A DNA stretch of 64,000 bases. Origin: Eledone cirrhosa (lineage: Eukaryota). The notes beneath the pieces were generated by a model. The model was not told the DNA's origin and did no database searches. It saw only the letters and a list, made by a program, of their open reading frames with translations. The position numbers were made by a program, and so were the translations under genes. This document shows, piece by piece, positions 3,513-49,599 of this stretch; the stretch's first letter is position 1; every line of letters starts with the position of its first letter. The stretch lies in assembly GCA_964016885.1 (NCBI GenBank), contig OZ024740.1:323020001-323084000 (forward strand), in the 5' to 3' direction.

Positions 3513-4517
3513 CATGTATGCATTTCTCACATGCAAAGCAGCGTTTTAACATGATATATACTTAATAGACCCGAATGACGTGTGAGACAAGAAATATACA
3601 TAGACACACATATCTATATATGTGTGGGCTTATCATTCTCGGAATGTATTTATATGTATCTGCATATACGTTCTGGATGTAAGCCGAAGTCAAGATATCT
3701 GTATTTATATATGTCTATGTGTGTTTGTGCCTGTGTGTGTCTATGTCTATTCGTGTCTAAATATGTGCAGGCCTATGTCCATGTATAGATATATATATGC
3801 ATGTATTTGTAAGTGTGTGAATATGTATATGTATGCATGTAAATGTGTGCGTCTATGGGTGTATATCAATACGTATACATTACCTGTAGGTATCTGTGTG
3901 TGTGTGTGTACTTTCTCGGAATCCAACCAAAGTAAACACTAACCAACATTCAACTGGGAACCGTTTACATTTTTTTTTATTGATTTTTATCTCTGTTCAA
4001 CAACTAAGAAAATATCAGATATAAAATATTCGCTCAGTTTTAAGACATTTCATTCAAAAGTCTATATATAATTATGTTTTGACATGTTCTTAACACATTC
4101 GATTGAAACTGCTGTTTAAAACAGGCTTTCATTTAAAACACTGCCATACAATGACTTCATATCACATCGTAATAATGGGAGACGGAGCACTAATAACAAC
4201 AACAAAAATATGATGATCGAAGTAGTAATAATAATAATGGTGAAAATAATAATAAAACATAACAATAATAATAATGTTTTCTTTATTAACCACAAGGGTT
4301 TACATAAAGTAGACATTAAGGACAGTACAGGACAATACAGGACGGTACAAATGGGCATTTCTGCGTGTAAAAAACAGAGGATGAAATAAAATACCAAAGA
4401 AAAATTCCCCAATAGGGGGGAGACTTCCGAGGGACATTTGTGGAGAAAGCCCAGTAAAAGGCCACAGTGACCCTGACCACCAAGGCAAGTGCCCTCTCCC
4501 AGTTTTCCACCTTTAAT

Positions 4518-7500
4518 TTACATACACATACTCAGAGTAGGCCCATTCACTCGGGCCATTCTTGCTTCTCTCACCCATCTTTCAACAAAATGCTGGGAAG
4601 AGAGCACTTCCCTCTCTACTCTGATTTTCCTTTTCAAATGAAATTTGAAAAAGTCAATCAGGGCATCACCGAAGAGGTAAGTGCTCGTCTTCAGCCCTTT
4701 CAAACGTGTCCACCATACTATCTCTTTCGCCATGGCCACCAGACAGATAAAAACTGCCTGCCCTTCCCAGCTAAAGGAAGAGGGCGGGGCAATCCTCACG
4801 ATGGACTCAGATGATAGCTGGATCCGTCCTACACGCGACAGCAGGTGTTCGACATAAACCCACAAGTCAGCAATTTTCGGACACTGGACGAGTGCGTGCA
4901 GGACGGTTTCGTCGCCCTGCGCGCATCTCGGACATGCCCGGCTGACGGCATCTCCATGCCTGTAGAGTTTATCCCGAACTGGCAAGGCTCCTCGGTAGCA
5001 CTACCAGGCCAGAGATTTCTGGAAGTTGTCCATAGGTCCCGGCCCGAAAGTTCTTCCGAAGAGAATGGCTAGTAGATTTTCGTCGACGCCTAGAGTTTCC
5101 CCAAGTACGTCGTCGCTCTTCCCCTCCACTAATACTCTACAGAACGCCGAGGTGGAGTTTCCACTGATCACATTGCCCGATTGGTCGAGGGCTGTGAGCG
5201 CTTGAAGACATTCCAGTCTCCAGGCGCTCCCTCTCGGTCTTCGCTTGACCCAGGACTGCAGCTCCGTCAAGGAAACGAGCTGGGGAAATACGTGTCTAGC
5301 AAACGGCGACCACACCTGATCACCGTCGAGGAAGAGGTGGAGATGTCGTAGCCTGAGCACGTGTCTGCGCATCATCAGCCACAGCATGCCCATCCCTCCA
5401 CGTAGCGAGTGTTGACAGCAGATGGACCGCCTGACCATCGGAGCGCGTCCCTTCCACAAAAAGCGAAAGAGCAAACGCTCCAGCGCAGTCAGGCGGGGCT
5501 TAGGACAAGGTACGACGGTCAGGCGGTAGCAGATGACAGACGCGATGTACGCGTTAGCCACCTCCGCTCGACCTTTCAGGGATAGCTTGCTCTCCGCCCA
5601 TTTCTGGGTAAGAGAAGCCATCCTGCTCGTCACCTCGTCCCAGTTTTTGTCCGTCTGGAGGTCCGGACCGAACCAGACCCCTAGCAATTTAACCGGTCCG
5701 TCCGTCCAGCGTCCGACGACGCTGTTGGACGGCATGGACCTGCCTCTCCAGGTGCCGAGCTGCAGGCCCACTGACTTTTCCTGGTTGATCATTGCTCCTG
5801 TCACCGCTTCGTATTCTCTTAGTGTAGTGCCGATCGCCTCGATGTGTTTGGCGTTCGCAACCACTACGGTGATATCGTCCGCATATGCTGACACGGATCT
5901 TCCGCATCCTAGTTCGCGCGGGACGCCCCTCAACGTCTCCAGTTTGTGCAGTAATGGCTCGAGAGTCGATACGTACAAGAGGAAGGAGAGCGGACATCCT
6001 TGGCGGACCGAGCGGCGCATGATGTTGAACGGTTCCGAAAGGTGACCGTTCACTCTCACCACAGAGCAGATGTCGCTGTGCATGGCAGCGATCCAGCCTC
6101 TGAAGACTGGCCCAAAGCCAGCCGCCCTCAGGACTGCCGCTAGGTAACGATGGTTGACCCTATCGAAAGCTTTCGACTGATGTAAATTGATCAAGGACCC
6201 ACCCGTGCCAGGTTCCCTAGCTACACTCTCTACGATGTATCGCATGAGGTGGAGGTTGTCGTGGATTGATCTGTCGGGAATGGCGCATGTCTGCGCCTCT
6301 CCCACCAGACCACCAACGACAAGCGCCAACCTCTTTGCTAGCACCTTGGCCAAAATCTTGAACTCTGTGTTTAGCAGAGTTATGGGCCTGAAATTATCTA
6401 TGTTATCCCCTTTGTTCGGATCCTTTCTCAGCAGTGCCACCGCCCCTCGGCTCACAGAGCTGGGAATTCTCCCGTTCTGTTGCCAGTTGCAGTAGACGTC
6501 CGCCAAGAGGCCTCCGAACAAGTCTGGCATCTGTACGTAAAGTTCATAGGGCAGACCATCCAACCAGGCGATTTACCCCTTGTGCAGTCAGTCATTGCCT
6601 CCCGTACTTCAGCGGCTGTTATCGGCTTTTCGCAACACTCCGCCTCAGTGGCCGAGAGCCGCGCCAGTCCGTCGAGGTAGACACTAAAGTCCATCCCTCG
6701 ACCCAGCCCACCGCTGCTCCCGAACAGCTGAGCGAAGTGTCGCTGAAAAGCTTCACACATTTTCCCGGGATCGAGTAGCATGCGCCCGTCGTGGTCCACC
6801 AAAGACCGGATCGTGGCTTTGTTGCCACGACGCGCTTCCGCCACTCGGGCCCATTGAACGGCTTTCGTCCCCTCGTGTCTGAGAGCACGCACCCTAGCCC
6901 TGACAACACAGCCTTCGTGCTTTGCATTGAAGAATTCGTCAAGGGCCAATTTTGCCGCAAGCACGTCGTTCGCGATGCCTTTGCTAAGCGCCTCGTCTAA
7001 TTTTCTAACTAGTTCTCCCTCTGCTCTATTTTTCTCTATTGCTAAAGCCTTACTAAACCTAATGGATTCTATTCTAATCGCCCTTTTTAGAGCAAACCAC
7101 CACTTTTTGTTGACGATGGCCCCCGTCAACGCCCGCTTAACTAGTTCGCTAATCCGGTCTCTGTAGGCCTTGCGCGCTGGTAAGGACGCGTTTAGCTTCC
7201 AGTAGCCGGGACCTCGTCTATGAGGCCTATCTAAGTCAAGCACGCAGATCACGAATTTGCGGTCCGTGTAGCTGACTATCTTGAATTGTGGACAGCCTAT
7301 GCTAGACCTATCTATTTCCCTACCAAATACTCTATCTAGATATGATCTGCATGACCCTATGCGATTTGTCCAAGTCCACATTGGCACATTCGGGAAATCG
7401 AATCGGTACCTGTCAGACAGTTCAAAACGCCTGAGTAGGTTGGTGAGGCTCTTGCACCCTCCACCCCTATCCGCTAATCCCACACAGTCCGAGCGTGCAT

Positions 7501-7938
7501 CTAAGATCCCTTTCCAGTCGCCCACTAACACTAAAGAGAGGGGCGTTCCAAGAAAGGTCTCCAGACACCGGAAGAAATCAGGCCGCCCTGCTCCTGTCGG
7601 GGCATAGACGGCCACTAGCCTGAAAGCTTGCCCGTCTCCGCTGATCACGTCCAGCACCACCAACTTACCCTCTGGGTCCAGGAAGATGGCCCGTATGGTG
7701 AGATCCAAACCTCTCCTAAAAAGCACAGCAACTCCTCCCCCGATCCAGGACGGCTGGGAGATGCGTACACATCGTAGCCGCCGAAGATCGGTGCGAAGGC
7801 CCGTGCTTCGGAGATTCTGGTCTCGCTGATGACCACTACATCTATGTTTAGTGACCTGAGGTCGTTGAGCAGGTGACCCTGTTTCCATGACGACCCCAAG
7901 TCACGCCGATTTATGCTGCCTATTCTGAGTGAGGTCAT
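4518..7938 (-). pseudogene. Tx1 LINE ORF2: APE endonuclease, reverse transcriptase and C-terminal zf-RVT-like region, disrupted
   Basis: APE motifs (IGSIN, VVISET, LVGDW, SYLDRVF, YTDR), GPGYWKLN, RT motifs (FRPITLLN, KAFDRV, VRQGCPLS, AYADD) and CPRCAQGDETVLHALVQC. Split over four ORFs by frameshifts and stops. Confidence 0.93.
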
Positions 7939-7973
7939 GTTTAAAATGGAGTAGAAAAGATGGGAAAGACCAC

Positions 7974-10154
7974 TTACCGTACTTTTCGTAGAGGAAGGAT
8001 GGTTTCTCCATCCCTTTTCACTTGATCGTCTGGTGGAGGGACCGTTGAATCGTCCCTTCGGCTGCTCGTCGGCTCTTCTATGAGTATGTCCGAATATACT
8101 CTCCGGTTGAGAGTCCCTCCTTGGTCTCTGAAATCACCAACTGCGTTGGGGAATTTCGTTTTAATGTTTGTGTATTGTTTCTGTGCTATTTTTACCAGTC
8201 TTATGTTCGTTGGCGTTTTGATTGGGGCTGGTATTATGTAGTCGTGCTGTGAAATGTCTGTGTGTTCAATTATGTAAGTCATTAGTTTCTTGTTGTGTGT
8301 ATTTATTGCCGTGCATTTGTTTTTCTGGGGGTGGGGTGTGGTTCTGCTATTTTCTTGTCGTTGTTGCTGGGTGTGTGTGTTTTGTTGTTGTGTTTGCGAT
8401 GTTGGTGCTTGTGGTGGTGGTGTTGAAGGTGTTGTTGTTGTTGGCGGTGGGGTTGTCGTCGGTGGTGATGGTGGTGCTAGTGTGTGTCGTGATGATGTTG
8501 GTGATGTTGCTGCTGTGAGTCTCTTTGCAGTAGCCTTTTCCCTTTTTTAATTTCTTTCCTCCCTTTTCGAAGGCGACGATGCGCTGCTTCTGCGTGTGTG
8601 CCTTCTTGCGACCTTTTGCCATCCCTCTCCCACCTCACACTCCATGTTCGATTCTGTGAGGTCGGGGAGGGGTACCAGCTCCATTCTTTCACTTGTGGTT
8701 GTTGGTGATGTTTGCAGTGGAGTCTCTGTTGCAGCTGCATTTGGTATTACTGTTGTTGTTGTTAATACTTCCACTGCCGCTGCTGTTCTTGATTTCCGTG
8801 GCGTGGGTATGGGTGCCACGGACCTATCATTCCTGGTTGCTGCTTGTCCTGCTGCTGGTAGCCGTGGAGTCGGTTTCGGAAGGAGGGGGTTTTCTTCTTT
8901 CTCAGGGTCTTCTCGTTGCAGAAGGCTCTGAGGTGAGTCTTCAATCAACAACGTAAGCAATTCGGGTGTTTGCCCTCAACACTTATGGGCAGTTGAGTGC
9001 CGTTATCGAAGTCTATCACATCCGGGATAGCTTCGATGCACTCCTGGTTGGTTTGGATTAACATCTCAATGGAGGTGCCGACCCAATCTTCTCTTACTTT
9101 TTTCTGTACTTGCAGTACAGTTGTTTTGTCCTCGATTCCGACGAGGACAGACGCGACCAGCGAAGAAGGGGCTATCCCGGGGGGGACGTGGGTCAGTTTG
9201 ACCCTCACAATTTTTTGCTCGCAGTAGGAGGGCACCAACACCATTTCCTCGCTCCTTAGGGTCACTAAGGATTGAGCCTTTGCCTCCTGGGGTGTGGCAA
9301 AAAGCACGTCTACGGTGGCATATTTTTTTGCCTCGGGTGATATGCGTTTTCCGCTGCCACACAGACCCTAAGGCTTTTTGTATTTGAGCCTCTGTGGCTC
9401 TTTCAACCCTACGGGATTTTGTGCTTACTGTACGGTACGTGACCGTACAGTGCTGTTGGGTTTCGAAAAAATTTTCGGCTGCCTTGCAGATTGCTCGGTG
9501 TCCGGTTTTCGTCACCATCTTCTTCGCTTCCTGTAATTCCTCATTTGTTATGAGGATGGTTTCCAGGTTCTTTGCGATACCTGCAAACGAGATTGGTTTT
9601 TCTTTGCTGCTGTTGTTGTTGTTGTTGTTGTCGTCAGAGCTGCTGTTACTTTTGTTGTTGCTGCAGGTACTACGACTACTGCCGCCGCCGCTGTTGCTGT
9701 GGTTGTTGTTGTTGTTGCTGCTAATGCTGTTGTTGTTGCTGTTGCTGCTAATGCTGTTGTTATTTATGGTGCTGCTGATGCTGTTGCGGCTGCTACTGTT
9801 GTTTTCCTCGTTACTGTTGCTGCTGCTGCTGTTATTACGGCTGCTACTGCTATTATTCATGACGTCAGACGAATGAAATGGGTTTTCGTATTTACCGCAC
9901 ACCTTTTTCGTCGTTGTCGTCGTCGTGGAGAAATGTTCCATGTTTTGCACGTGATTTTGGAAACTATTTTTCTTTACTGGCGTCGCTTGCGAAAGAGAAG
10001 GGAGGGAGAGAGACACATTTAGAGAAGGGAGGGAGAGAGACACATTTAGAGAAGGGAGGGAGAGAGACGATCTTCTCTCTGCTGTAGTGAGGATTGAGGA
10101 AGAAGAATACGGAATGAGTGGGAGTGACTTGTGAAAATTCTTTTTCGTAGCCAT
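7974..10154 (-). pseudogene. Tx1 LINE ORF1 (gag-like nucleic-acid-binding protein), frameshifted and with a premature stop
   Basis: Starts MATKKN at 10154. N/S-rich low-complexity region, then SFAGIAK. Zinc knuckle CLRC*LKTHLRAFC is split by an in-frame TGA (ORFs 8945..9307 and 8762..8944 are contiguous in frame). Homologous to ORF1 of copy 2 (CFLCGETTHLRAFC). Confidence 0.85.
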
Positions 10155-13030: not shown

Positions 13031-13595
13031 TATAGAACATTTTTGTTTAATAAAAGGTAGAATAAAGCCAGAAACATTTCTTCTTCTTCTTCTTCTTCTT
13101 CTTCTTCTTCTTCTTCTTCTTCTTCTTCTTCTTCTTCTTCTTCTTCTGTTGTTGTTGTTAATATTGTTACTATCATCACCATCCTCCTCTCATCATCATT
13201 ATCAACATCTTCCTCATCCTAATCATCACCATCACCATCATGATCATCACCACCAACAACACCAACACCATCATCATCATCATCATCACCAACATCACAA
13301 AACAACGTCACCACCGCCATCACCATCATCACTGACACCACAACCATCATCACCACCAACACCCTCACCACCGCCACCACCATCCCCCCGTCCCCCCATC
13401 CCATCCCCACCCCCACCAACACCACTATCACCGTTATTGTTCTTATTAATTGCAATATTACTAATAAGATAAGATAAGATAAAAATAAAAATATTAACAA
13501 AAAAAAAATTCAAGAAAACTAAGCAGAAATGAAAAGATTTGTACGAATAGATAAAATTGATGTTAAATTAAATCTGGAAGTGACTATATTTGGTT

Positions 13596-13663
<68 letters not shown>

Positions 13664-13681
13664 AACCAAATATATATATAT

Positions 13682-18683: not shown

Positions 18684-18934
18684 TATACGTACGTATATAA
18701 ATACATACATACACACACATATATCACTGTATTTAGCTCCTCTCTCTCTTTCTCTCTATCACTATCTGTCACTCTATATCTCCGCCCACTCTTTTAAATA
18801 GTAACAAAGTTTGTTTAGTTCTACCAACAGATTACTGAAGTTTCCAGAACTAGGTGAAACTTGAACTGATTCAAATCGATGAATCTTTAAACTTCAATTG
18901 TCGTCTTGTAACTGAGTTAAAATAGAATGTAACG

Positions 18935-19400
18935 TATGAACACTCTGCCTCACAACAGAATGTACTGAATCAATATCTTGACTGCCTCTCAACAGAATGT
19001 ATCGATAGAATGTATTGAATCGATATCTTGACTGTCTCACAACAGAATGTATCGATAGAATGTATTGAATCGATATCTTGACTGTCTCACAACAGAATGT
19101 ATTGAAACGATATCTTGACTGTCTCACAACAGAATGTGCTGTATCACAACTTCTTCACAATAAAGTGCACTGAATCTATATTTTAACTGCCTCACAACAT
19201 AATGTACTGAATTAATAATGCCTAGACTGCATTACAACAGAATGTACTCTATCAGCATTGCCTTACAACAGAATGTACTCGATAAAAACTATAACTGATC
19301 AATACCTTACCTGCCTTACAACAGAATGTACTGGACGAACGCTTTATCTGCCTCACAACATGTATTGGATGAGCACCTAGACTGCCTCACAACATACACG
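18935..19400. repeat. Minisatellite with 35/49-bp units
   Basis: Repeats of CTCACAACAGAATGTA(TCGATAGAATGTA)TTGAATCGATATCTTGACTGT that decay to the right. Confidence 0.9.
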
Positions 19401-19952: not shown

Positions 19953-20328
19953 GGGCGATGGATTGGCAGTATCAGTAGAGGATCGGAGGCCATGCTTTCC
20001 ATCATAGAGTTACGTCCCTTTACGGACTGAGTTCAAATCCCGCCGAGGTTAACTTTGCTTTTCATCCTTACGGGGTCGATAAAATAAAGTACCAGTAATG
20101 TACTGGTGAATTGCTGGCCTTGTGCCAAAATTAGAAACAATTATTATCGCATTTGCAGTACCAGTAGAGTGCTTTGACGCATAGAGTTAGGGCCCTTGCC
20201 ATTCTGAGTTCAAATCCCGCCGAGGTTAACTTTGCTTTTCATCCTTACGGGATCGATAAAATAAAGTACCAGTAATGCACCACTGGGTAATTGCTGGCCT
20301 TGTGCCAAAAGTAGAAACAATTATTATG
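19953..20328 (+). mobile_element. Two head-to-tail SINE family A copies
   Basis: Copies at about 19953-20146 and 20154-20328. The first has TSD ATTATTATC(A/G)CATT. Confidence 0.92.
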
Positions 20329-22499: not shown

Positions 22500-22611
22500 G
22501 AGAGAGTGTGTGAGAGATAAATATGAATAGTACTTCTAATATGAATATATGTATGTATGTATGTATGTATGCATGTATGTATGTGTATATATGTATATAT
22601 ATATATATAAT

Positions 22612-22687
<76 letters not shown>

Positions 22688-22697
22688 AAAAAATGAT

Positions 22698-22771
22698 ATT
22701 GAAATGATCATAGTATAATAAACCTTTCAAGGATTTACACCAGTCCAGCCTCCTGTTATTTTATTTTATTT

Positions 22772-22813
<42 letters not shown>

Positions 22814-22887
22814 AAATAAAATAAAATAACAGGAGGCTGGACTGGTGTAAATCCTTGAAAGGTTTATTATACTATGATCATTTCAAT
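22698..22887. repeat. Perfect 190-bp palindrome with an (AT)n centre
   Basis: ATTGAAATGATCATAG...CCTCCTGTTATTTTATTTTATTT(AT)n is mirrored base for base around 22792/22793. Confidence 0.95.
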
Positions 22888-22929
22888 TACCGCGTTCCAT
22901 ATGAATCCGGTGATATCATCAGGTATTGG
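22884..22929 (-). ncRNA. Degenerate minimal hammerhead ribozyme (Penelope pLTR type)
   Basis: The minus strand reads CAATAC-CTGATGA-TATCACCGGATTCATAT-GGAAC-GCG-GTA^ATTG. It has one core substitution (GAAAC to GGAAC), imperfect stems I and II, and AATAAA shortly downstream. Confidence 0.55.
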
Positions 22930-23739
22930 AATATAACAAAGGAATATGTAAAAAACCATGGGTCCGAAAAATCAGAGACAGAGACAAAGAGGACGACTGA
23001 CCAACTAGCTGCCTTCACCTCGGCCAGTCGCCCTCAAAGTGATGGCAACTGAATCTACTAATGACCATCTGGTGAGGGGGCGAAGGCTTATAATGCAATA
23101 CCACCTCTCCGTCAAAGAAAAAGGGGAAGAAAGAAAGAAAGGAAGAAAGAAGAAAAAAAGGAAGAAAGAAGTCAGCGTAAGGGTCACACTACATTCATGC
23201 TAGAAAATGCCGCGAAAAATGCTACTCCAAAGAATCTATATTTAACAAAGGCATATATAATGGGTGTCTGTATGGTCTAATGTGTGAACCGAAAATTGGA
23301 ACGTTAAACTTATGTTACCAGTTATAGGATGAAATTAAATTAAATAAAAAAAATATTAAATTGCAAAATGATAAATTGAAAAATAAATTATTAGAAAATT
23401 AAAGGTTAAGGTAGCGAGATTTATTTAATGAACTTACAGAGAGAGTAAACCAACAAACCTAAAGATATATATATATATATATATATATGTATGCATTATA
23501 TTTACATGAGACTATTTCTCACTTTCTCTCTTTCCCCACAGACACACGTGGAGAGAGAGAGAGAGAGAGAGAGAGAGATTCTCATGTAAATATTATTCAG
23601 TAGATTATACATATGAGACTGGATATGTAAATATTTAAAAATATTAAGAAGGGAAATGGTGTTCTTATTAAGTTTACATTCGAAGCGCATCTTAAATAAA
23701 ATTCCACTTTTCATTACGGCTGATGTATAACATAAAGAT

Positions 23740-34076: not shown

Positions 34077-37000
34077 AGTTGCATTTATCTTGCTTTATGT
34101 TCATACGAGTTATCACCGAGTCACAACCAGTGACCTCAAGAGACAACAAGGTCCGCCATGTTCAAGAAAGAACATACATACTCACACATGCATCTTTAGT
34201 GTTTAGACTTGTGATGTACTTATATTGACAGAATCTTCCTTAGTATATGGGCAGTTCCCATTAGTACTATCTTTTGTATTTCTCCTATACGCGGGTTTCC
34301 TGGGATTTGCGATAAGTAATCATTAGACCCCTTAGGTATCATTCCCAGAGCGCCTACAACCACTGGTATTGTTTTAGTTCTCAATTTCCACATTTTTCCA
34401 ATTTCTATCTCCAGGTCCTTATACTTGCTCAATTTTTCAAATGTTTTTATAGATACATTCTTGTCTATTGGAACAGACATATCAATTAGCAGGCATACCC
34501 TCTTTTTAAAGTCCTTCAATATTATATCAGGTCTATTTGTATCTATTTTTCGGTCTGTTTGGATGCTAAAGTTCCACAAGATTGAGATGTGATCTTTTTC
34601 AAGTATGGGAGGTGGTTGATGCTCCCACCAATTCTTTTGATGGGGCAGGTCAAAATGCTTACACATTATCCAATGTATGTATTGTGCAGCTCTGTCATGC
34701 CTGTTTAGGTATTCGGTTGGAGCTATAGGACTGCACATTGAAATTATATGGTCTCTGGTTGTTTTTTGCATACACGGCATAATGGGCTGCTTCCATTTTT
34801 TATTATGTTGGCTTGGTAATTTTTTGTTGGCAGACACTCATCTTGTGCTGATATAATCAGTCCTTCAGTCTCCGATTTCAGTCCAGAGGATGCCAACTAC
34901 TGATGGGTTAAAGTTTTGTCAACATCAGGATTGTTAGCTCGCTCTGGGTATTTTCCATACAGAGGCTTTTCTTGCCATTTCTTAGCCAATTTCTGTAGCA
35001 GTTCTTTCTTTGCAGTTACTTTTACCTGCTTTGCTTTTTCTGTGTTTTCCATTTCAGCAGTAAATGGGACTTCTGAAATTTGTAGTCCATTACTGTATCT
35101 TTGTGCATCTTTTGTAATGGAATATGATCTTTTGATGCTTTCGTGTTTCAAAACGAGTTTGATCATCCAATCATGTGATTCCCTTAGATATGTAGATAAT
35201 CCAATTGTTGCAGTTTTCAACGCAATGTCTAACTGGATTAACCCACGTCCTCCTTCTTTCCTAAGGAGATATATTCTATCTATATCTGCCTTAGGGTGAT
35301 GCATTCTGTGCATGGTTAAGAATTTTCGAATTTTTGTATCGAGCCTACGGATCTCTGTGATGACCAGTTGATGACATTGTAACTGTAGGTTACTACTGGT
35401 ATGGCAAGCGTGTTTATGGCATCGATCCTATTCCTTGCATTCAATTCCGTTCTTAAGATTGCTCTTACTCTGCGGTAACATTCCTTCCTTATCCTTTCCC
35501 TCATTGTCGAGTGCTTGATTCCGTCTCCTTCACAAACACCTAGATATTTGTAAGTTTTTTCTTGATCAAGTTCTCTTATCACGTTCCCCCTATCAAGATT
35601 AATGTCTGAACTCTTCAGCAGCTTTCCTCTGTTGAACGTTGCTTTGGCGCATTTATCTAGTCCAAACTCCATTTTAATGTCATCACTGAACTGCTCCACA
35701 GTGGATAATAGCCCTTGCAATTGTTCATCATTTTTTGCAAATAGTTTCAGGTCATCCATGTAGAACAGGTGATTAATGGTTTTGTCATAGACTTTATATC
35801 CATGTTTTGTTTCATTGAGCATTTTACTTAATGGTATAAGTGCGATGCAGAATAAAAGCGGCGATAAAGAGTCACCCTGAAAAATTCCACAATTAATATT
35901 AACTTCTCCAGCTTCCAGTGATTTTGTTTCACTATTCAAACGGAGTGTCGTTTTCCATGTCTTCATACTGAATGACAAAAACCTCCTGACAACGGGGGAT
36001 ATTTTGAAAATCTCTAAACATTTTTCAATCCAACTGTGTGGCAAGCTATCGAATGCTTTTTTATAATCTATCCAAGCAATCGATAGATTTTTGTGTCTAT
36101 TATGACAATCTTCCAGTATCATTTTGTTAACCAGAAGCTGATCCTTACAGCCATATGAGCCTCGTTTACACCCTTTCTGCTCAATGGGAAATAGGTCATT
36201 TGTTATCAGGTGGTCATATGTGTATTCAGTTAGGACTGATGTTAAAATTTTATACATTGTGGTCAAGCAAGTTATCGGTCTGTAATTTTTGCGATTGTTT
36301 GTCTCATCATTCTTCGGAAGCAGGAATGTAATGCCGTTAACTAGCCATGATGGTATCTTTTCTGGCTCCTTAACTATTTCATTGTAAAGTTGGGCTAACA
36401 GCTCATGAGACTCTGTGAAGGCATTTATCCAAAAGTTTTGTATTTTGTCTTTTCCTGGGGATTTCCATTTGCTGTTTTTTCTTAGAGCCAAGCGCAACTG
36501 TTCAACTGTTATATTTTCCCATATTTGTTCCTCAAGGTGAGCTGTATCTTTCATTTGTCTGTCTATCCATGGGGCATGTATGTTATGACCTTTTTCTTCG
36601 GCCCAGATCTTTTCCCAGAATTCTTGCACTTCCTCCTTGGGTGGTATTGATTTAGCAGTTATTGTTGACTTACCAATTTTTCTGTAGAAGTTTCTTTGGT
36701 TGTTTTTGAACATATTATTGTCCTTATAGAATCTAGATCGTTTTTCAAAGCGCCTTATACGAACAGCTTTGGCTGACACTTTTTGCTTGATTATTTCTAT
36801 CAGCATGTCTATGTCACATGTTAATTTTATACTGTACTTTTTTTTCAATTTTCTAAGTTTAGTTTGTTTAACATGTTCACCTACTTTATAGTTTGTTAAA
36901 ATTTCTATGTCAGATCGGAGAAGGTTTATTTGGCGATTGATGTTCTCTTGCCAAGTAGATTTCTTGTGGGAATTCCTTTGTTTTTTCATCTTCACTCCAC

Positions 37001-37960
37001 ATAAGTGAGTGGTGACTTTAGCCGATGCATAATAGAGATGATTTAAATCAGTAATGTTTAGTTTGTTTGTGATGATAATGTTTTTGAGAATTATGTTAGT
37101 CTTGTGTATTATCTTTTGGTTCTGTTTGGAGTTCTGGATCTTAGGGAGGGTGTCTCGTTGCGCCATGTCAGATTCTTTCATTTTCATCCATTCGATCATA
37201 ATTTCATCCTTCAAGTTGGCAAGTTCATTCTCATTCATTTCTTTATCATTTACGATCTCATTATTTTCATTTGGAGTTTCATCTTGAGCATGCACTCCCT
37301 CCACTTTTTCGATCCTTTCTTTAATTTGTTCTGTTGCCAGTGATTCCGCCCCAACCCTGGGATTCGAAGTGTTACAATTTACCTCGTTTTCACTGACACA
37401 TGTTTCATTTTTCCCTTCGCTGACTTTGTGCTAATAGCTTGATCAGATCAATTTCTATATCAGTTAGTAACTTTTTTCTTACAATATTTCTTCGTATATT
37501 GGCTAGTTTGTTACTGTCAATATAGCCTCTGTTTTCGGGATGTTTCTTTTTCCAGTTGATATATGTCTGTTCTGTATTCGCTGTATTTGATGGGTAGTAC
37601 ATGGCAGTGTAGAAAGCCTCAAGGACTTCTTTATTATCTTCCCTTGACCATTTCTCTATCTTTTTCTTTGGATTTCTTGGTGGTGAGCATGGAGGGCCAA
37701 CAGTAGGAGTATTCCGGTTATGGGAGGTCTCCAGCTCCGAAGTGATGGGAAGGTTTGAACCATTAGCTGATTTTTCGACCCCAGTCTGGTTCCTCTCTGA
37801 GGGACGCGGCCCTTTTTTACCCGGGTGACGGCCGATCCGGTATGAGATTTTATCATTAGACATTTACTATATTTTGTCGCGTTTTATCCTTATCCGCCAA
37901 GGGGTAATCATTTCGTGTTACCACTTCTAGAACGAGTGTCAACCAAGACCATTATTCAAC
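34076..37960 (-). mobile_element. R4/Dong-clade RLE non-LTR retrotransposon (element A), full length, decayed
   Basis: Single long RT-zinc finger-RLE reading frame broken into four pieces. Flanked on both sides by (TAA)n on the element strand (34027-34075 and 37961-38003), the known target of Dong elements. Confidence 0.92.
34220..37863 (-). pseudogene. Dong/R4 ORF (RT plus restriction-like endonuclease), frameshifted
   Basis: KWSREDNKEVLEAFY N-terminal motif, WKSPGKDKI, YRPITCL, WIDYKKAFDS, GIFQGDSLSP, LFYMDDLKLF, RHD, RPDIILKD..LIDMSVP and EKLSKYKDL. Confidence 0.92.
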
Positions 37961-38003
37961 TATTATTATTATCATTATTATTATTATTATTGTTATTGTT
38001 ATT

Positions 38004-41000
38004 CCTTGAATCTCAGTCATTGATGTTGGTTAACTGGAAAGTCCGTTGGATTGAATATCAAGCCACTACCTGCAGCCTCAGATATTCAGGACGTATCGGA
38101 GGGTTCTTGCTGTTCCAAGCAAGCATGCCTTTTGAAGCGTTCCAAAAAGCGTGAAGGGGCCGATTTTCTTTAACCATCCCTGGAAACCTTTGGAGATAGT
38201 CCCCAGTGCGCCTATGACAATCGGGATCACTTTGACTTCATGGCAGTTCCAAATCCTTTTCACCTCCCACTTTAGGTCCTGGTTAATTTTCTCCCTCTCC
38301 TTCTCTTGCACTCTCGTGTCGAACGGGCAGGCCACATCCACAATCAGGCACGATCTTTTTTCTTTGTCCACAACCACCAGGTCAGGTCTATTGTGCTCCA
38401 GTTTTTTGTCCGTCTGTATCCTAAAATCCCACAGCACCTTCACCTGACTGTTCTCCATCACCGCCTCTGGCCTATGCTCATACCATTTCTCAGAATGTGG
38501 TAGATTGTTTACTTTGCACAGGTGCCAGTGGATCACCCTGCCCATCACATCGTGTCTCCAGCCCTTATAGTGGGTCTGGGCTAGGTGTTTACACTCGGAC
38601 ACAATGTGAGCCACAGTCTACTCTCTCTCTCCACAGATCCTGCACAGTGGGCTAGCCTCCTCCTTGTAGATATGGTGCTTCAACCACTTCGTTTTGAGGG
38701 CCTGCTCCTGCGCAGCCATTAGCATTCCTTCTGTAGCCTTTTTGAGGTCTCCTCTTCTCAACCAGTTCCATGTCTGTGGATCTCTAAATTCAGTTTTCTC
38801 AAAGAAGGTACTATGAAGGGATTTTCCCTTAAGGCTGCTCTTCCTCCTTGATGTTATTTCCTCCTTGGATATCCCCTGGCCTACTGTCCCCTCCTTCAGT
38901 ACAGCTCTGAGCATTGGCTCCTTACTATAGGTCACGTATTTGTATAGGTTGTTTTTCTCCATCTGAACACAGTCCTCTATGCTGATAAGACCTCTTCCAC
39001 CCTCAGATCTCCTTAGGTAGAGTCTATCGACATCACTCCTCTTGTGGAACATGTTGTAGATAGTCAATAGCTTCCTAGTCTTCCTATCCATTTCTTTTTG
39101 TTCAGCAACATTCCATCTCAGAATTCCCGCACTGTACCTAATAATAGACACAGCTCGGGAATTTACTGCGCTTATGGCATTTCTGCTGTTCAGATGTGAC
39201 TTCAATACGCTCCTTACTCTCCGAATGTATTCAGTTCTTAACAATTCCTTCATTTTTTTGTTCTTTATGCCATCAGCCTCCAGAACGCCCAAATACTTGT
39301 ATCCTTCCTCAGAGTCAATTTCCTTTATCATCTCACCTGTTGGTATCTGGATCCCGTTACTTCTGCTCAACCTACCCCTCTTCATCACAATGACTCCACA
39401 TTTACCAATACCAAACTGCATACATATATCACTGCTGAAAATACGGACAGTGTCAACAAGCACATCCAACTCCTTCTCACTTTTCCCGAAGAGCTTAAGA
39501 TCGTCCATGAAGAGGAGGTGATTGATGGTAAGCTCTCCCCTTCCCAACTTGTATCCTGCTCTCACTTTTCGCAGCATAATGGTCAAGGGCATCAGGGTAA
39601 GGACAAACAACAGAGGGGACAGGCTATCTCCCTGGAAGATACCTCTCTTGATCTTCACGCTTCCCAAGGATACTCCAGTTGATGTCAACTCTGTCTCCCA
39701 GGACCCCATACTCCTGTCCAGCAACTGTCTGATGTTATCTGCCACCCTGAAGATCTCCAGGCTTTTGGTGATCCAGGAATGAGGCACCATGTCAAATGCC
39801 TTTCTGTAGTCTATCCATCCCATGGCAAGATCAGTGTGTCTCCTCCTGCAATTCCCCATTACCATCTTATCAATAAGCAACTGGTCCTTTGTACCACGTG
39901 ACTTCTTTCGGCATCCTTTCTGTTCGTCCGGTAACAAGTTGTTTGTGTGGAGGTGATGGTAGATTTCCTCAGACACAATGCTCGTCAACAGTTTCCACAT
40001 TACGGGCAGACATGTGATAGGTCTATAGTTGGTAACATCATTACCCTTGATTCGGTCTTTCATTATCAGAACTGTGGTACCTTTTGTCAACCACTCTGGC
40101 ACCTCACCCGACACCAAGCAGTCATTGAACATGGCCGTCAGCTTCGGGTGGAGGGATGTTAAATGTTTAATCCAATACCCCTGCACACCATCTGGGCCTG
40201 GTGATTTCCAGTTGGTTAGTTTTTTGGCTTGCCCCTTAAGAGTTTCAACTGTGATACTCAAATCAGTCTGTTGTTGTGCCTGCTCACCGATCTCCCTCTG
40301 TACTGTCTCAATCCACCCTGCCTGGGCATTGTGTCTAACATCCTGCTCCCATATTCCTCTCCAGAATGTTTTAGCTTGTTCCGCCCCAGGGATCAAGTCG
40401 TTGCCTCTTTCTTTCCCCTCAAGCTGTCCAAACAGCATCTTCTGGTTGTTGTCGAACATGCGGTTCTGTTTATACTGACTGACTCTGTTCTCGTATCGCC
40501 TGATTTTGGCACTCTTTGCTACAATGCGTTGCTTCAATTCCTCTATGATAATATTTAGCTTTTTACTCCTAGTTTTGTATTTTATTTCCAGTCTATTTTT
40601 AGTGCCTATGTTTTTTAGTGTCCCATTCAGTAGTGACTCAAGCTTTCCTATGTCATTTCTCATTTCCCCGATTTGCCCACTCAGTCGCTTCTTCCACCAC
40701 GGCTCTGCTCTTTCTTGTCTGTTGTTTCCTCTCGCTTTTATACCAAGTAGTTTCCTCACCGTATTTGCTGTTGCTTTGAGGATATTGTTGCACTGGTGAA
40801 GATTCCTCGCCTCAAGGTATGGGATGACTTTGTTTACCTTAGCTGTTGTTTCTTTTAACTTTTTCCTGTCTACAAATCTTAGGTTCATAGGTCTCCCACT
40901 ATCATTGTTCAACTCATCTACCACTAAATTTAGGATGTCAACCGAATCTTGTCCTAGCCCGTCAGCATTCATCTCCTCAGTGGCCGTATCTCTGTTCCAG

Positions 41001-41580
41001 GTATTATTTATCTCAGTATTCAGATCATTGTCTGCTTCGGGTGGTTCCTCCGTTCTCAGGACCTCCTCACCTTCATTTCCCACCGGCTCGCTTGTCTGGC
41101 ATACTACACCCGCCATCTCCAAGCCATTCTCTCTGCTCAGTTCCTCCAGTTCCAGCTCGCTTATCCACCCATTAGTTCTTATTACCCGAGCCTGCCCGGC
41201 CAATTTTTGTTCATCTAATTTAAATAAACCAATCTCGTTCCAGATGTTATGCATCCGTCTCCTGTAGCCCCTCTCCTTGGGGTTACTTTTCAGGTAGCAT
41301 TGCATAACAGTTCTATTCAATTCTTTCGTCCAGTTGGTTCTGGCCCCTTTCCTTCTTCTTCTTCCTCCAACATCAGCAGTATTTGGTTGACAGTCAGGTT
41401 CCTGCTGCTGAGCCAGGGGGCACCTGTTGGGTGAGAGTCTGTCACATGACGTTCTAGTCTCCATTTCACCGTTATTCGAACTGTTTATGTTCGATATTTA
41501 AACACTCTTATCGAGGATTGGCGAATGTATGTTTACATAGCCATCTGTGGATCCGCCATCCCACTTGGCCCTTGTGTGGC
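38004..41580 (-). mobile_element. R4/Dong-clade RLE non-LTR retrotransposon (element B), near intact
   Basis: Its 3' (TAA)n tail directly abuts the 5' end of element A. The 5' boundary is approximate. Confidence 0.92.
38078..41464 (-). pseudogene. Dong/R4 ORF, about 1128 codons, with one in-frame TAG
   Basis: A 948-aa ORF (GIFQGDSLSP, LFMDDLKLF) ends CRICGERE* and continues in frame as TVAHIVSEC...RHD...RPDLVVVD..IVDVACP. Confidence 0.94.
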
Positions 41581-42566: not shown

Positions 42567-42777
42567 GACGAAAGTGGATGTACGTTTTTTGAAGCTCCGT
42601 GAGTAAGCAATTTTTTGAGGATTAATTGTGGAGAATTGTTTATTTTTTGTACCGCTGAAGCATTATAAGACATTCATTTGTATCCTGTGAAGGAATAACT
42701 CATAATATTTGGGCCTTTTGGCCCAAATATTTGAACTTTATTTTGGAAAAATAATAATTTTTTTTTCTCAAAAAAAC

Positions 42778-44695
42778 ATGGCGGAGCCACGCCCCCTAGA
42801 GGCGGGTCTGCTGTCGTGCAACGGCGACTTGAGCGTTGAGAGGAGAGGTGGGGCGAGGAGCGCCACCAGCACGAGTGTGAGCAGCGACAGTGCCAGCACC
42901 AACGGGCCGAGCGGCGCGGAAGGTGGTAACAGCGACAACACCAACACCAACAAGCCGAACAGCGCAGAAGGTGGTAATAGCGAGAGCACCAACAAAACGA
43001 ACAGCACAGAGAGTAATAGTAGCGACAGCAGCAGCACCAACAAGGCCAACAGCACAGAAGGTAACCACAACACAGGGGAGAACAACAACAGCAATAGCAG
43101 CAGCAACACCAACAAGAACAACAACAGTGACAACACCAACAAGAACACTTTCGCTGCTGTGGCAGCGGCTAAAAGGAGACCATGCTACAGCATCGACTTA
43201 ACCAACAGAGAGGAAAAGTTGGCCCAGGCCTGGAAAATCATAAATCAAGAGCAGACCTGGGCAAACTTAAATGTCCCGGCAGAAGCCATTGCGGCAGTGG
43301 AAAAAAGAACGGTGCATTTCAGATGCATCTCAGTAGAGACAAAGAGGGCAGCGATAATCGCCCAAGCTGATATAGAAGCCGCACTGAAATACATCAGAGA
43401 GGACACAGACTTCATAGAGAGGGGCAGGCAATACGGCACCGTTTCGGTGCTGTTCAAGTCTGAAGCCCTCGCTGTGAAGCATTCAATGACCCCTTGCAAA
43501 ACCAGCAAGGTCATAATGTACCCCTCCCACATGGGAAAACGAATAGCACGTGTGCGCATTCCCAGGATTCCACCAGGACTTGATATGTGGTGGCTCCTGG
43601 GTTGCGTAATCGTGGAAGGAACGGATACAGTCCCGGTAGAGGCAACGAGAACTGCCAGGGACGACTGGTCCGGAGTTGATCTGGAGATACTGCTCCAAAT
43701 CAGACCCGAAAACGTAAAAGCAATCCCGGACCACATCCGCCTCCAAAACGGGAGGGTGTTGCATATAATGACTGAGGGCAAAAGGCCGCATTGTTTCCTT
43801 TGTGGGGAAACGACACACTTGCGAGCCTTCTGTCCTCAACTGCCGAAAAGCGCAAGGGGTCGAAAGATTCCACTGCTGGCGACGCCGGGACAAGGACCAC
43901 CAGCAACACCGTCAACAATGGAACCACCAAAATTGCACACCCAGGGGGGAAACGAGGAAAGCTCTCCCATTCCCCCCCCCCCCCCCCAAAAAAAAATACA
44001 CACACGAACAAGAACATAAACACTCACTCAGACACAAACACGCTCACAGCCACAGACCCCTCATCCTCCAGCAGTGAAGATGAGGGAAAACCAAAGTCCA
44101 CCAAAATACAAAAAACAAAACACAAAAAAAAAAGAAATCCACAAAGCACAAACACCCCCACAAAAAAAATACACACACCACCCACACAAACATTTTCCCC
44201 ACAGCATCACCAACACAACCACCAAAATCCCCCAAACGCAAACAAGCTAAACAGACACAAGAACAAATAGACACACAAACATCAGAAACTACAGACACCC
44301 CACCCACATCAAACGCAGACACAATAGAAACAACACTAACAAAGCTATCACCACCACAATCACACGAACAAATAAAACCCGAGCAGCAAAACATTAAAAA
44401 CTTCGTGCTTGCCAGAAGGGCCAACAAGGAATTGATGGCCCATGTAGCACGAAGCACAAACATCGAAAAAGAGGGGGAAACATTTGAAGCGAGCACATTT
44501 CGCGTACCAGATAATTTGCTTCTGATGCGAATGTCGCTCGCTTCATACAAAGAAATTCGAAAGAGCTTTCCTCGGGATGTGGGAACCCCGAACGTAAAAC
44601 CCACTTCAAGACTATTAAAGGGGTTCCCAAAAGAAACCCCACAAACCATGGAGGTCGAACCACCCGACCTTCACAAGACCCCGGAAGGTAAGTAA
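42778..44695 (+). pseudogene. Tx1 LINE ORF1, frameshifted (at least near the C/A homopolymers at about 43972-43995)
   Basis: MAEPRP start in AAAAAACATGG context, N/S-rich repeats, TFAAVAA and CFLCGETTHLRAFC knuckle. The last segment ends PEGK* just before ORF2. Confidence 0.85.
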
Positions 44696-44724
44696 ACCTT
44701 TCCTCTCCCATTCATCCTGCCAGC

Positions 44725-47251
44725 ATGGCCATAAGAGTAGGAAGTTTAAATGTTCGTGGCCTGGGGTCGCCCTGGAAGCAAGGTCACTTGCTCAACGACC
44801 TCAGGTCACTAGGAATGGATGTAATTGCCATCAGCGAGACCAGAATTTCCGACACACGCGCACTGGCGCCGATTTTCGACGATTATCAGATCTTTGCATC
44901 TGTTAGTCGGCCGGGAATGGGAGGTGGAGGGGCTGTGCTGTTTAGGAAATGTCTGGATCTCGAGGTAAGGTCAATCTTCCGGGATCCTGACGGAAAGTTG
45001 GTGGTCCTGGACGTGAGCAATAGCGAAGGTGGTGCCTTTAGACTGGTGGCCGTCTACGCCCCTACTGGGGCCGGTCGGCCGGACTTCTTTAGGCGCCTGG
45101 AAAACTTTCTGCTTACGTCTCGCCCTTTACTGTTAATAGGGGATTGGAATGGCATCTTAGAAGCACGCTGGGATTGTGTGGGAGTATCTGATAGGAGCGG
45201 GGGGTGCAAAAGCCTCAAGTACCTGATCAGCCAGTTTCAACTGTCTGACAGGTACCGACTAGATTTCCCTAATGCGCCAGTATGGACCTGGACCAATCGC
45301 ATAGGGTCATCTAGATCGTACATAGATAGGATTTTCATTAGGAAAAGAGATAGAAATAGTGTAGGATGTCCACATTTTAAAACGGTTGCCTATTCAGATC
45401 ACAAGCTTGTGATCTGTATGGTCGACCTAGATAAGACACGTAGGTTAGGACCTAGCTATTGGAAGCTAAACATGTCGTTTCCGGCACGTAAAGCTTACAG
45501 GAACCGGGTCAACAACTTAGTTAAGCAAAAGTTGACAGGGGGGGGGGGGTTGTCAACAACAGGTGGTGGGGGGCTCTCAAAAGAGAGATTAGAGCAACCT
45601 CGATAGGATTTAGCAAAGAAGTAGCAATAGAGAAAAATAGAAAGGAGGAGGGTCTGATAGCTAAGTTAGACGAGGCTATTTGTAGTGGCATTGCAACAGA
45701 CGTGCTAGCGGCGAGAATGGCACTAGACCATTTCTTCAATGCGAAACACGAAGGTTGCATTGTCAGAGCTAAGGCGCGTGCTCTGAGGAACGAGGGAACC
45801 AAAGCTGCCCGATGGGCTCGCTTTGCAGAGACGCAGCGTGGAAATAAAACCACAATTCGGTCTTTGACGGATCGAGATGGACACGAACTGAGCGATTCCA
45901 AGCAGATGTGTGAGGCCTTTCGCCAGCACTTTGCTCGATTGTTCGGGAGGATGGGTGAGTCGGAGATGGCGGCGGACTTCAGTCCCTACCTCGACGGCTT
46001 GCCACGCCTCTCGACGGCCGACGCTGAGCGCTGCGAAGAGCCGATAACATCAGCCGAAATTCAGGACGCCCTTGTCGGCTGCTCGGGGTTTGGTTCGGAC
46101 CAGACCTCCAGGTGGATAAGAATTGGGACGAGGTGACGAGCAGGATAGCCAACCTCACCCAGAAATGGGCTGAGAGAAAGCTATCACTGAAAGGGCGGGC
46201 GGAGGTGGCGAACGCGTACATCGCGTCCGTCATCTACTACCGCCTGACCGTCGTGCCTTGCCCCCGTCCACGCCTCGCCAATTTGGAACGGCTCTTTTTC
46301 AAATTTTTGTGGAGGGGACGGGTCCCGTTGGTGAGGCGGTCCATCTGCTGCCAGCACCCTCTTCGTGGAGGGCTGGGCATGCCGTGGCTAATGATGCGCA
46401 GACATGCGCTGAGGCTGCGACATCTCCAGATATTTTGCCTAAACGGTGAACAGGTGTGGTCGCCGTTTGTTAGACGGGCCTTTCCGCAGCTCATCTCTTT
46501 GACTGAGCTGCAGTCCTGGGTCAAGAAGAGACCGAGACTGGGCGACTGGCATCTGGAATGTTGCCAGGCGCTCACTGCACTCTGCAAGGTGGGCAATGCG
46601 GTCAGTGGAACTTCCACTCAAGATTTCTATAGAGGATTAGTGGAGGGCAAGTGCGATGACGTACTAGGAGAGGCTCTGGGCGTCAACGAAGTAGAACTGA
46701 CCAGTATGTTCCGGAGGACTTTCGAGCCGGGGACGATGGATAACTTCCAGAAATCCCTCGCTTGGCAGTGCTACCGGGGGGCGCTGCCGGTTCGGGATAA
46801 ACTCTACAGGCACGGAAGTGCTGTCAGACGAACCTGCCCGAGATGCGCGCAGAGCGACGAAACCGTTCTGCACGCACTCGTCCAGTGTCCGTGCATTGCT
46901 GACTTGTGGGGTTATGTCGAACAGCTATTGTCGCGTGTAGAACGGATCCGGCTATCGTCCGAGTCCATAGTGAAGATTGACCCGCCGCCTTCTTTTGGTC
47001 AGGAAGGGCAGGCAATTTTCCTCTGCCTGGTGGCAGTAGCGAAAGAGGTTGCATGGTGGACCAGGTTGAAAGGACTGAAGACAGACACTTTTCTCTTCGG
47101 CCAATCCCTCATCAACTTCTTCAAGTTTCACTTGGAAAGGAAGGTGAGGGTGGAGAGAGAAGTGCTGCCCCCCAGTACATTTACTGAAAGGTGGGTGAAT
47201 GTGGCGAGAATGGCCCGCGTGAGTGGGCCTACTCTGATCATGCGCCTGTAG
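44725..47251 (+). pseudogene. Tx1 LINE ORF2 lacking the RT domain
   Basis: APE motifs (VGSLNVRG, AISET, IGDWN, SYIDRIF, YSDH). Frameshift at the G run near 45540. DALVGCSG is joined to GVWFGPD-coding DNA at about 46085. The C-terminal 379 aa are open and include CPRCAQSDETVLHALVQC. Confidence 0.92.
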
Positions 47252-47522
47252 GCTGGTGAATTCGAGAAGGAGAGGGGTGCCCTTCCCGGGTGCCCTAGGA
47301 GCGTCGGGTGGCTCAGGACTGGTGGGGTGCTTGAGTCAACCCTGGGTGGTGATCCCTCTTATTGGGGAACTTTCATTGTTGTATTTTTATTGTTATTTTG
47401 TTTTTTTGTTATTTATACTTACTCGATCTCTATGTAAACCCCCACTGTCCCTGTCTATTGTGTTGTCCCCTATATGTCGGCCCTTGTGGCCAATAAATGA
47501 AATCATTATTATTATTATTATT

Positions 47523-48484: not shown

Positions 48485-49240
48485 AACCCTAAACCTAAAC
48501 TTAACCCTAACCCTAACCATAAACCAAACATACCCTTACATCTAACACTAAGCCAAACCCTAACGCTAACCCTAACGCTAACCCTAAAACTAACTCTAAA
48601 CCTAACCGTAACACTAACACTAATATTATGTCAAAACCGAAACTAACACTAACTCTAAACCTAACCCTAAACCTAACCCTAACCATAAACCCCAAACCTA
48701 ACCCTAACCATAAACATAGCCTTAACCCTAACCCTGACCGAAACATAACCTTAACCCTACTCCTAACCCTAACCCTGACACCAATGCTAATCCTATCCCT
48801 AACTCTAACCCTTACCTTAACCCTAACCCTAACCATAACCATCAACTTAACCTTAACGCTAACCCCTAATCCTAAACCTAACCCTAACCCCAAAACTTAC
48901 CCTAACCCTAGCACTAGCTCTTATCCTAAACCTACCCTAACCCTAACCTTAACCCTAACGCTATCCCTAACCTTAACCCTAATCCCCAACCCTAACACTA
49001 ACCTAACTGTATCCCTAACCCTAACACTATCCCTAACCCTAACCACAGTGCCTAGCCTAACACGCCCCCTAACTCTCAACCTGACACCAATACTAACCCA
49101 AACTCTAACTCAGACCAACCCCATCAACCCTAACTCTAACCCTCACTCTAACTCTAACTCTAACCCTACCGCTACCGCCAATACTAACCCTAACCCAACC
49201 CGATATCAGCCAACCCAACCTCACCTAACCCTAATGCTAA
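48485..49240 (-). repeat. Degenerate interstitial telomere-like (TTAGGG)n tract
   Basis: About 750 bp of TAACCC units with many variants (TAACCA, TAACTC, TAACAC, TAAACC). Confidence 0.92.
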
Positions 49241-49599
49241 CACACATCACTCACTCACAGATTCCACAGCAAATATATAAACACTTGTAACTTACATTTG
49301 AAATTATGTATAGGTAATTGCAACAATTATTAACGTATATATATATAGTTATGCAAATTTTTATTTATTCATAATTGAATGTAAATATATATAATCACAC
49401 TGTGTACGTGTATATGTATTTAGACATTATGTATATTTATATGTGTGTATATATGCTTGTATTTGTTTATGTTCCTCTCTGTCTCTTCGTGTGGGTTCAT
49501 ACTTTTGTTCATAAATATGTATGCAAAACTCCTATTTATGTTACAAATAATGTAAACACATACATAGAGGAATACACATACATACACAATTATATATAT

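Follow-up and report, generated by a model that had tools for sequence, protein, structure and literature searches.

The perfect palindrome at positions 22698–22887 of the 64,000-nucleotide stretch of Eledone cirrhosa DNA analysed here (the window) consists of the tail of a high-copy repeat and its mirror image, and is likely to be an ordinary fold-back copy rather than a footprint of RNA self-cleavage. The preliminary description had put the cut of a hammerhead ribozyme exactly at the outer edge of the palindrome, and had read the left arm as a copy whose 5' end was set by that cut. Had that reading held, it would have offered genomic evidence, of a kind that is rare, for cleavage by Penelope hammerheads in vivo; it fails because its cut site was wrong by 15 nt. 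The locus then adds a further hammerhead-bearing animal family, probably of Penelope type, which is missed by Rfam and which stands here in the less common tail-to-tail layout.

Layout of the palindrome and its flanks

In the assembly sequence the inverted repeat consists of two 95-nt arms (22698–22792 and 22793–22887), which are 100% complementary and separated by no spacer, as had been described. Symmetry is lost at the first base beyond each arm. The non-repetitive share of each arm is about 70 nt and, among the palindromes of the window whose arms are other than simple repeat, this is the longest perfect one. The axis (22792/22793) lies in a (TA)n centre at 22771–22814, which reads (TA)6 A (TA)9 T (TA)6; in the assembly, both interruptions of this centre occupy mirrored places.

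The right arm, on the minus strand, is the 3' end of a 5'-truncated element, and the left arm, on the plus strand, is a mirror copy of that 3' end. The tail-to-tail join through (AT)n that had been proposed is upheld as a layout. The left arm contains the GAAA, helix III, the predicted cut and the 3' strand of stem I of the hammerhead described below; it lacks CUGAUGA and so holds no whole ribozyme. On the other side, the non-coding 5' part of the same repeat copy occupies 22927–23464 (minus strand); it is of lower copy number and has no Pfam match. Within it, a stretch from 23437 to 23107 on the minus strand has a donor-like GTAAG at 23437, a branch-like CTGAC at 23175, 62 nt of 94% pyrimidine and an AG at 23108. 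By its sequence this is a possible spliceosomal intron, a candidate that deserves attention because Penelope-like elements keep introns.

The whole unit (22686–23464) sits between two host (TA)n arrays: on the left (TA)8 A (TA)6 A (TA)31 at 22594–22685, and on the right (TA)11 at 23466–23487. A 12-nt filler (22686–22697, plus strand) separates the left arm from the left array. In hindsight, 11 of its 12 bases could be explained as copies of two short segments, 22877–22883 and 22895–22898, both at most 25 nt from the right-arm edge; a match such as the 7-nt one is expected by chance with a probability of 0.053, so that the evidence is weak. A reading of the centre as a target-site duplication of the (TA)6A in the left array was possible but weak, and was set aside. 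No further copies of the family were found in the 64-kb window, where only the two arms match.

The window is otherwise animal-type DNA, with many microsatellites, which seem octopus-like, and LINE-like reverse transcriptase frames. Broken LINE-like retrotransposons occupy 4500–9400, 34200–41500 and 42700–47300, with RVT_1 at 5001–6569, 35319–37430 and 38621–41497 on the minus strand, and an endonuclease (44692–45603) and a zf-RVT (46028–47248) on the plus strand. A degenerate minisatellite with a unit of about 37 bp and roughly ten copies lies at 18913–19394, and two 111-nt copies, 88% alike and 177 nt apart, lie at 19993–20280. The segment 23700–23950 resembles a tRNA-derived SINE of cephalopod genomes; a second copy in the window and a tRNA call were both absent. 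A long degenerate hexamer repeat at 48513–49290, seen as translations, is like telomeric (TAACCC)n and is internal to the window.

The hammerhead and its predicted cut

The right-hand copy has a complete type I hammerhead core on the minus strand at 22869–22926, with predicted self-cleavage at 22873/22872, between AUA and GUAU. The predicted cut lies 15 nt inside the palindrome arm and 55 nt from the end of the unique sequence. In order, the best register comprises stem I (AUAC/GUAU; 22926–22923 with 22872–22869), CUGAUGA (22922–22916), the long stem II hairpin (22915–22885), GAAA (22884–22881), and the palindromic helix III AUGAUCAU (22881–22874), with A as N17 at 22873. The cleavage triplet NUH is AUA (22875–22873), and the required A15.1–U16.1 is present. 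Stem I is of 4 bp and abuts both C3 and N17, with pair probabilities of 0.85–0.94. Helix III is an 8-nt perfect palindrome whose self-duplex comes to −7.2 kcal/mol; the predicted dimer minimum still differs from the active fold. The stem II hairpin is worth −7.0 kcal/mol as RNA and −3.9 as DNA, and its stable part (22911–22889) stops one base outside the arm edge. Directly 3' of stem I on the minus strand is AATAAA (22863–22868), a possible polyadenylation signal.

A descriptor made up of CUGANGA, GAAA, a palindromic helix III, UH and an abutting stem I of at least 3 bp has a single match on both strands of the 64 kb, with C3 at 22922, G12 at 22884 and N17 at 22873. For a stem I of at least 4 bp, the background, taken from 100 Markov-shuffled windows and from 20,000 local shuffles, was 0.02 per window in the former and 0.00045 in the latter, rates which flatter the register, since the descriptor was written once the register had been seen. 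The G10.1–C11.1 pair that closes helix II is absent, and in its place stand U.U, then R–U, U–A and a mismatch; many Hydra-clade entries in the available text of Craig et al. (2021; PMC8557442) also lack the pair, which makes this a variant and not an exclusion. Forced folds in this register come to −1.7 kcal/mol for the window copy and to −4.0 and −4.8 with read-majority letters, and the active fold lies about 10 kcal/mol above the monomer minimum. In view of the weak base of stem II and of this gap, the ribozyme may be inactive. Hammerhead families of Rfam were unmatched in searches at gathering and E-value thresholds; Rfam microRNA matches were hairpin-driven and below the gathering score, and were rejected.

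The minus-strand letters quoted in the preliminary description are present, and its CUGAUGA core is real. Its cut at 22888/22887 does not hold: in that register GGAA/UGAA or GAAC stands for GAAA, the two bases (AC) that separate stem I from the core are unpaired, stem II has only 1–2 bp, and C.A is found at 2.1/1.1. Its forced folds range from +7.0 to +16.1 kcal/mol, and a probability of 0.00 was obtained for those pairs of the two stems that were checked. The true GAAA is found 12 bases beyond the core as it had been drawn, with the perfect palindrome of helix III next to it, and the GUA that had been taken for the cleavage triplet (22890–22888) belongs to the 3' strand of stem II. A consensus without GAAA had been named beforehand as telling against the earlier reading, and the family majority has GGAAC or UGAAC at that place. 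The same majority has GUC at 22890–22888, preceded by CCGG, which fits the earlier register; the case is a warning that a long stem II may hide a decoy GUC.

The family in sequencing reads and the origin of the left arm

Four of the 23 listed runs were placed on 22680–23470 at 80% likeness: the contigs X1 and X4, and the RAD raw reads X21 (1681 reads placed) and X22 (1579 reads placed). X1 may be the assembly's own sample. Read coverage omits 22680–22834 as repeat, so that the palindrome centre and the left junction fall outside it. The family is high-copy and 3'-heavy. Depth in X21 is 582 at 22844, 954 at 22857, 946 at 22842–22868, 1255 at 22869–22895 and 1078 over the core, and then 526, 111 and 19 going 5'; beyond 22977 raw depth is mostly 1–50, against about 1250 at the 3' end. 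The drop from 1255 to 19 within about 110 nt, to which divergence of upstream variants contributes, indicates strong 5' truncation. Large groups of 5' loose ends at 22927, 22931 and 22947, upstream of the ribozyme, also partly reflect such divergence. About 82% of the reads over 22869–22887 continue into the ribozyme; most family reads pass 22888, where the boundary had been expected, and end near 22927–22947.

Among 40 of the 116 substitution entries, none falls in 22916–22923 or in 22869–22887, and five fall in 22888–22914, within stem II. Every substitution listed reaches about 30% in some run, from which we infer that the remaining ones are rarer. At 22893 the majority letter restores a G–C pair of stem II that is broken in the window copy (1030 of 1088 reads in X21; 1000 of 1037 in X22). 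U at 22898 (613 of 1070 in X21; 545 of 1039 in X22) adds an A–U pair to stem II and would replace the G12 of the earlier register. Position 22914 is A or G, either of which pairs with U; 22899 lies in the stem II loop; and 22888, opposite a mismatch, is C in 1058 of 1080 X21 reads. Among 12 of the 17 indel entries there are two minor insertions in the 5' strand of stem I, each in 6–9% of raw reads. The stretch 22845–22887 is identical to the read majority.

Among 24 of the 221 loose-end entries, one group lies at 22887 (103 and 93 reads) with letters that differ from the filler of this locus; its agreement of 94–97% points to one locus or subfamily. A 9-read joint is also found at 22887. The same entries contain no group at 22872, although copies so short may escape placement, and ribozyme-set ends may occur in other copies. 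Mixed loose ends at 22852 and 22858 mark a tail-like 3' extension (22818–22857, minus strand) in part of the family, and those of 22852–22858 suggest an optional 3' tail, the second end of which falls in the omitted repeat stretch. Nine X21 reads carry a tandem duplication of 22864–22887 with 13 other letters, starting like the 22887 group, between the copies; these reads could stem from a subfamily whose stem II differs.

On balance, the left arm is best explained by the folding back of a self-complementary (TA)n end, which then served as primer for copying a short stretch of the element's 3' end in mirror orientation. The starting point would be a 5'-truncated copy of the high-copy repeat inside a (TA)n tract. 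Its (TA)n end would have folded back in one event, either at integration (on a sense template) or later in break repair; extension would then have reproduced the interrupted centre, followed by the tail and by the ribozyme's 3' half. The GC-rich stem II hairpin, whose foot lies 15 nt beyond the cut site, may have halted the copying there, and the new end would have been joined to the left (TA)n via the 12-nt filler. Fold-back is favoured over trimming by the ribozyme since the arm stops at the stem II foot and since even the interruptions of the centre have their mirror counterparts. A single base separates the end of the copy from the stable part of stem II, a plausible place to stall.

Around other alternating A/T runs of even length, a mirror extension of at least 10 nt is found in 4 of 52, against 1.28 in permuted data (permutation share 0.021); extensions of at least 3 nt number 12 against 9.6 (share 0.20) and hence show no enrichment. 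The excess of long extensions could be a biological or an assembly effect. One of the four is a second perfect palindrome in the window, at 13585–13674, which has a 13-nt arm about (TA)32 and is unrelated to the hammerhead family; it suggests a general tendency to mirror copying at (TA)n.

A more specific proposal, which is doubtful, is that the element's own reverse transcriptase makes the tail-to-tail palindromes of this family by 3' fold-back at a (TA)n end and is halted repeatedly at the base of stem II. As many as about 18% of the family's reads end close to the arm edge, as do copies from one or more further loci or subfamilies. Arkhipova et al. [quoted passage not shown] If the proposal is true, the arm boundary would be a genomic footprint of ribozyme folding and not of cleavage, and the locus would be a natural instance of the self-priming predicted in 2013. 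If such palindromes were seen again and again across the whole genome, their centres mirrored and their arms ending where stem II begins, they would inform reverse transcriptase priming and stopping.

Two separate target-primed insertions in opposite strands of one (TA)n tract, or one concerted two-strand insertion, might also have produced the layout; this is somewhat unlikely. The left copy would then be a very short, 5'-truncated one that ends at the stem II foot. Identical young copies would be unsurprising, as the family is abundant and 3'-heavy and 22845–22887 is the read majority. Targeting of (TA)n is known for the Hydra clade (PMC8557442), one Penelope-like protein, studied in purified form, acts on both strands by cutting and extending them (PMC11167929), and another locus or subfamily leaves the family at about 22887, as the loose ends there indicate. 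The symmetry would be explained equally well if the family 3' end carries (TA)6A; mirrored interruptions of the centre are, however, not expected in a pure tract unless the template carries them. Both arms also contain the putative optional tail and, a weak point, share the allele at 22844, where 56–60% of raw reads differ. It is less probable again that assembly or sequencing created the left arm artificially, through a strand switch at a (TA)n hairpin. Perfect symmetry and zero spacer would suit such an origin, as would the mild enrichment of long mirror extensions around (TA)n in the window, and read data cover none of 22680–22834. Long-read chimeras, however, typically show read-length fold-back, whereas the short arm here runs into the non-mirrored 12-nt filler and an asymmetric flank. 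A second sample, moreover, matches part of the right-hand copy exactly (X4 record 12; 99 nt, 0 differences), a match that bears on the right-hand copy and not on the left arm.

The two remaining readings are far less probable. That the ribozyme cuts at 22888/22887, with the left arm as the reverse-transcribed 3' cleavage product, is very improbable, although the boundary is exact for the GUA of the window copy (GUC in the family) with CCGG before it, and a G at 22914 could pair with a C at 22899 as G10.1–C11.1. The frequencies of these two letters disagree (12% against 80% in X1). In both raw runs the depth does fall near 22887/22888, by about 240 reads (18%); a single stack accounts for 103 and 93 of these, and the rest of the step may be clipping at the near-fixed mismatch at 22888. 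Against this reading stand the absence of GAAA from both the window copy and the majority, with U for G12 in more than half of the raw reads, a stem I that does not abut the core, folds of +7 to +16 kcal/mol, and the existence of a complete alternative register. In that complete register the cut falls inside the arm, which retains the GAAA, helix III and the cut site, all of which would be lost from a cleaved 3' product; the end of the left arm was therefore in all likelihood not set by the ribozyme. In the available text of Frangieh et al. (2024; PMC11167929), insertion of a purified element in vitro dispensed with cleavage, and RNA reads starting at the cut were none. Slightly more improbable still is that the 190-bp palindrome is a mobile miniature inverted-repeat element beside which hammerhead-like words occur by chance. 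Its perfect inverted arms and AT-rich site fit, and any target duplication would be indistinguishable from (TA)n, but the ribozyme 3' half lies within the arm, and the share of reads that run on from 22869–22887 into the ribozyme largely refutes it.

Relation to known elements

The repeat family is likely to be a Penelope-like element, of which the coding part was not found; the identity is drawn from the build of the hammerhead and from the (TA)n site, both of which match published Hydra-clade elements. To this extent the Penelope-type, hammerhead-bearing 3' end of the preliminary description is supported. A reverse transcriptase or GIY-YIG frame of Penelope-like type was absent from the 127 window ORFs scanned individually (10 long ones, and 117 of the 121 short, non-repetitive ones outside the LINE-like blocks, which contain 86 further ORFs). 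When a Penelope-like ORF was looked for (reverse transcriptase with C-terminal GIY-YIG; RWK, DKT and CxCX5C), the copy was found to be truncated within non-coding sequence. Hydra-clade traits that are present are a hammerhead near the 3' end, insertion in (TA)n (at one locus) and strong 5' truncation.

According to the available text of Craig et al. (2021; PMC8557442), nearly all Hydra-clade elements insert in (TA)n, and their hammerheads often read ctgatgat...tgaa, with some 4 bp in stem I, a short helix III and, frequently, A as N17. The present copy is like these in its type I hammerhead near the 3' end, an extra U flanking stem II on both sides, a 4-bp stem I, a short helix III, A as N17, its (TA)n site and heavy 5' truncation. 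It is unlike them in a longer stem II with an imperfect base and in the tail-to-tail layout; its sequence also differs from that of the sole cephalopod entry, Hydra-1_oBim, and it is known here without a protein. Three words of the family gave 0 matches in the supplement of the same paper.

The hammerhead also resembles the metazoan hammerheads of Cervera and De la Peña (2014; PMC4209133), which have the form CUGANGAH...GAAAN-palindrome-NUH, with a short helix I, a long helix II and a palindromic helix III suited to dimers. The available text of that study describes variants whose helix III is palindromic, and reports that in vitro activity is low; copies are mostly solitary and truncated, and opposite-strand pairs lie 100–700 bp apart. 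Unlike those hammerheads, the present one is missing the highly conserved G10.1–C11.1, and its left arm amounts to half a ribozyme. A literature search, largely outside subscription papers, found neither this family nor any tail-to-tail palindrome that ends at stem II. Pattern matches in public collections numbered 0 and 0 in viral contigs, 1 and 2 in prokaryote genomes, and 2 in metagenomes; all 5 loci (L001–L005) had unlike flanks and were set aside as chance word matches. A parallel between an A9-U-G start codon and an anole element rested on 12 codons compared by eye, and was dropped.

In being non-coding, in carrying a type I hammerhead and in its probable Penelope derivation, the repeat is like the non-LTR retrozymes (bioRxiv 10.64898/2026.07.22.740005). 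As described in the available text, those form head-to-tail arrays with a ribozyme in each unit, whereas here there is one whole ribozyme and one inverted half. The window has one descriptor match and only the two arms match each other, and the repeat was hence not assigned to the retrozymes.

For the favoured fold-back origin, a parallel is found in the break insertions of yeast described by Yu et al. (2024; PMC11724301), which are also local inverted duplications primed by fold-back, the other end being captured by end joining. In the available text of that study the fold-back insertions are mostly 5–34 bp, against 95 nt here, a point against such an origin, and a retroelement is not involved. 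Among retroelements, there is a likeness to the inverted pLTRs of Penelope (PMC3846280, PMC11167929), which share with this locus an inverted, 5'-truncated partner, a palindrome at the junction and possibly an optional tail of 30–40 nt. The usual inverted form of Penelope, in the available text of PMC3846280, is head to head, with the tails pointing outward; the palindrome described here has the rarer tail-to-tail form.
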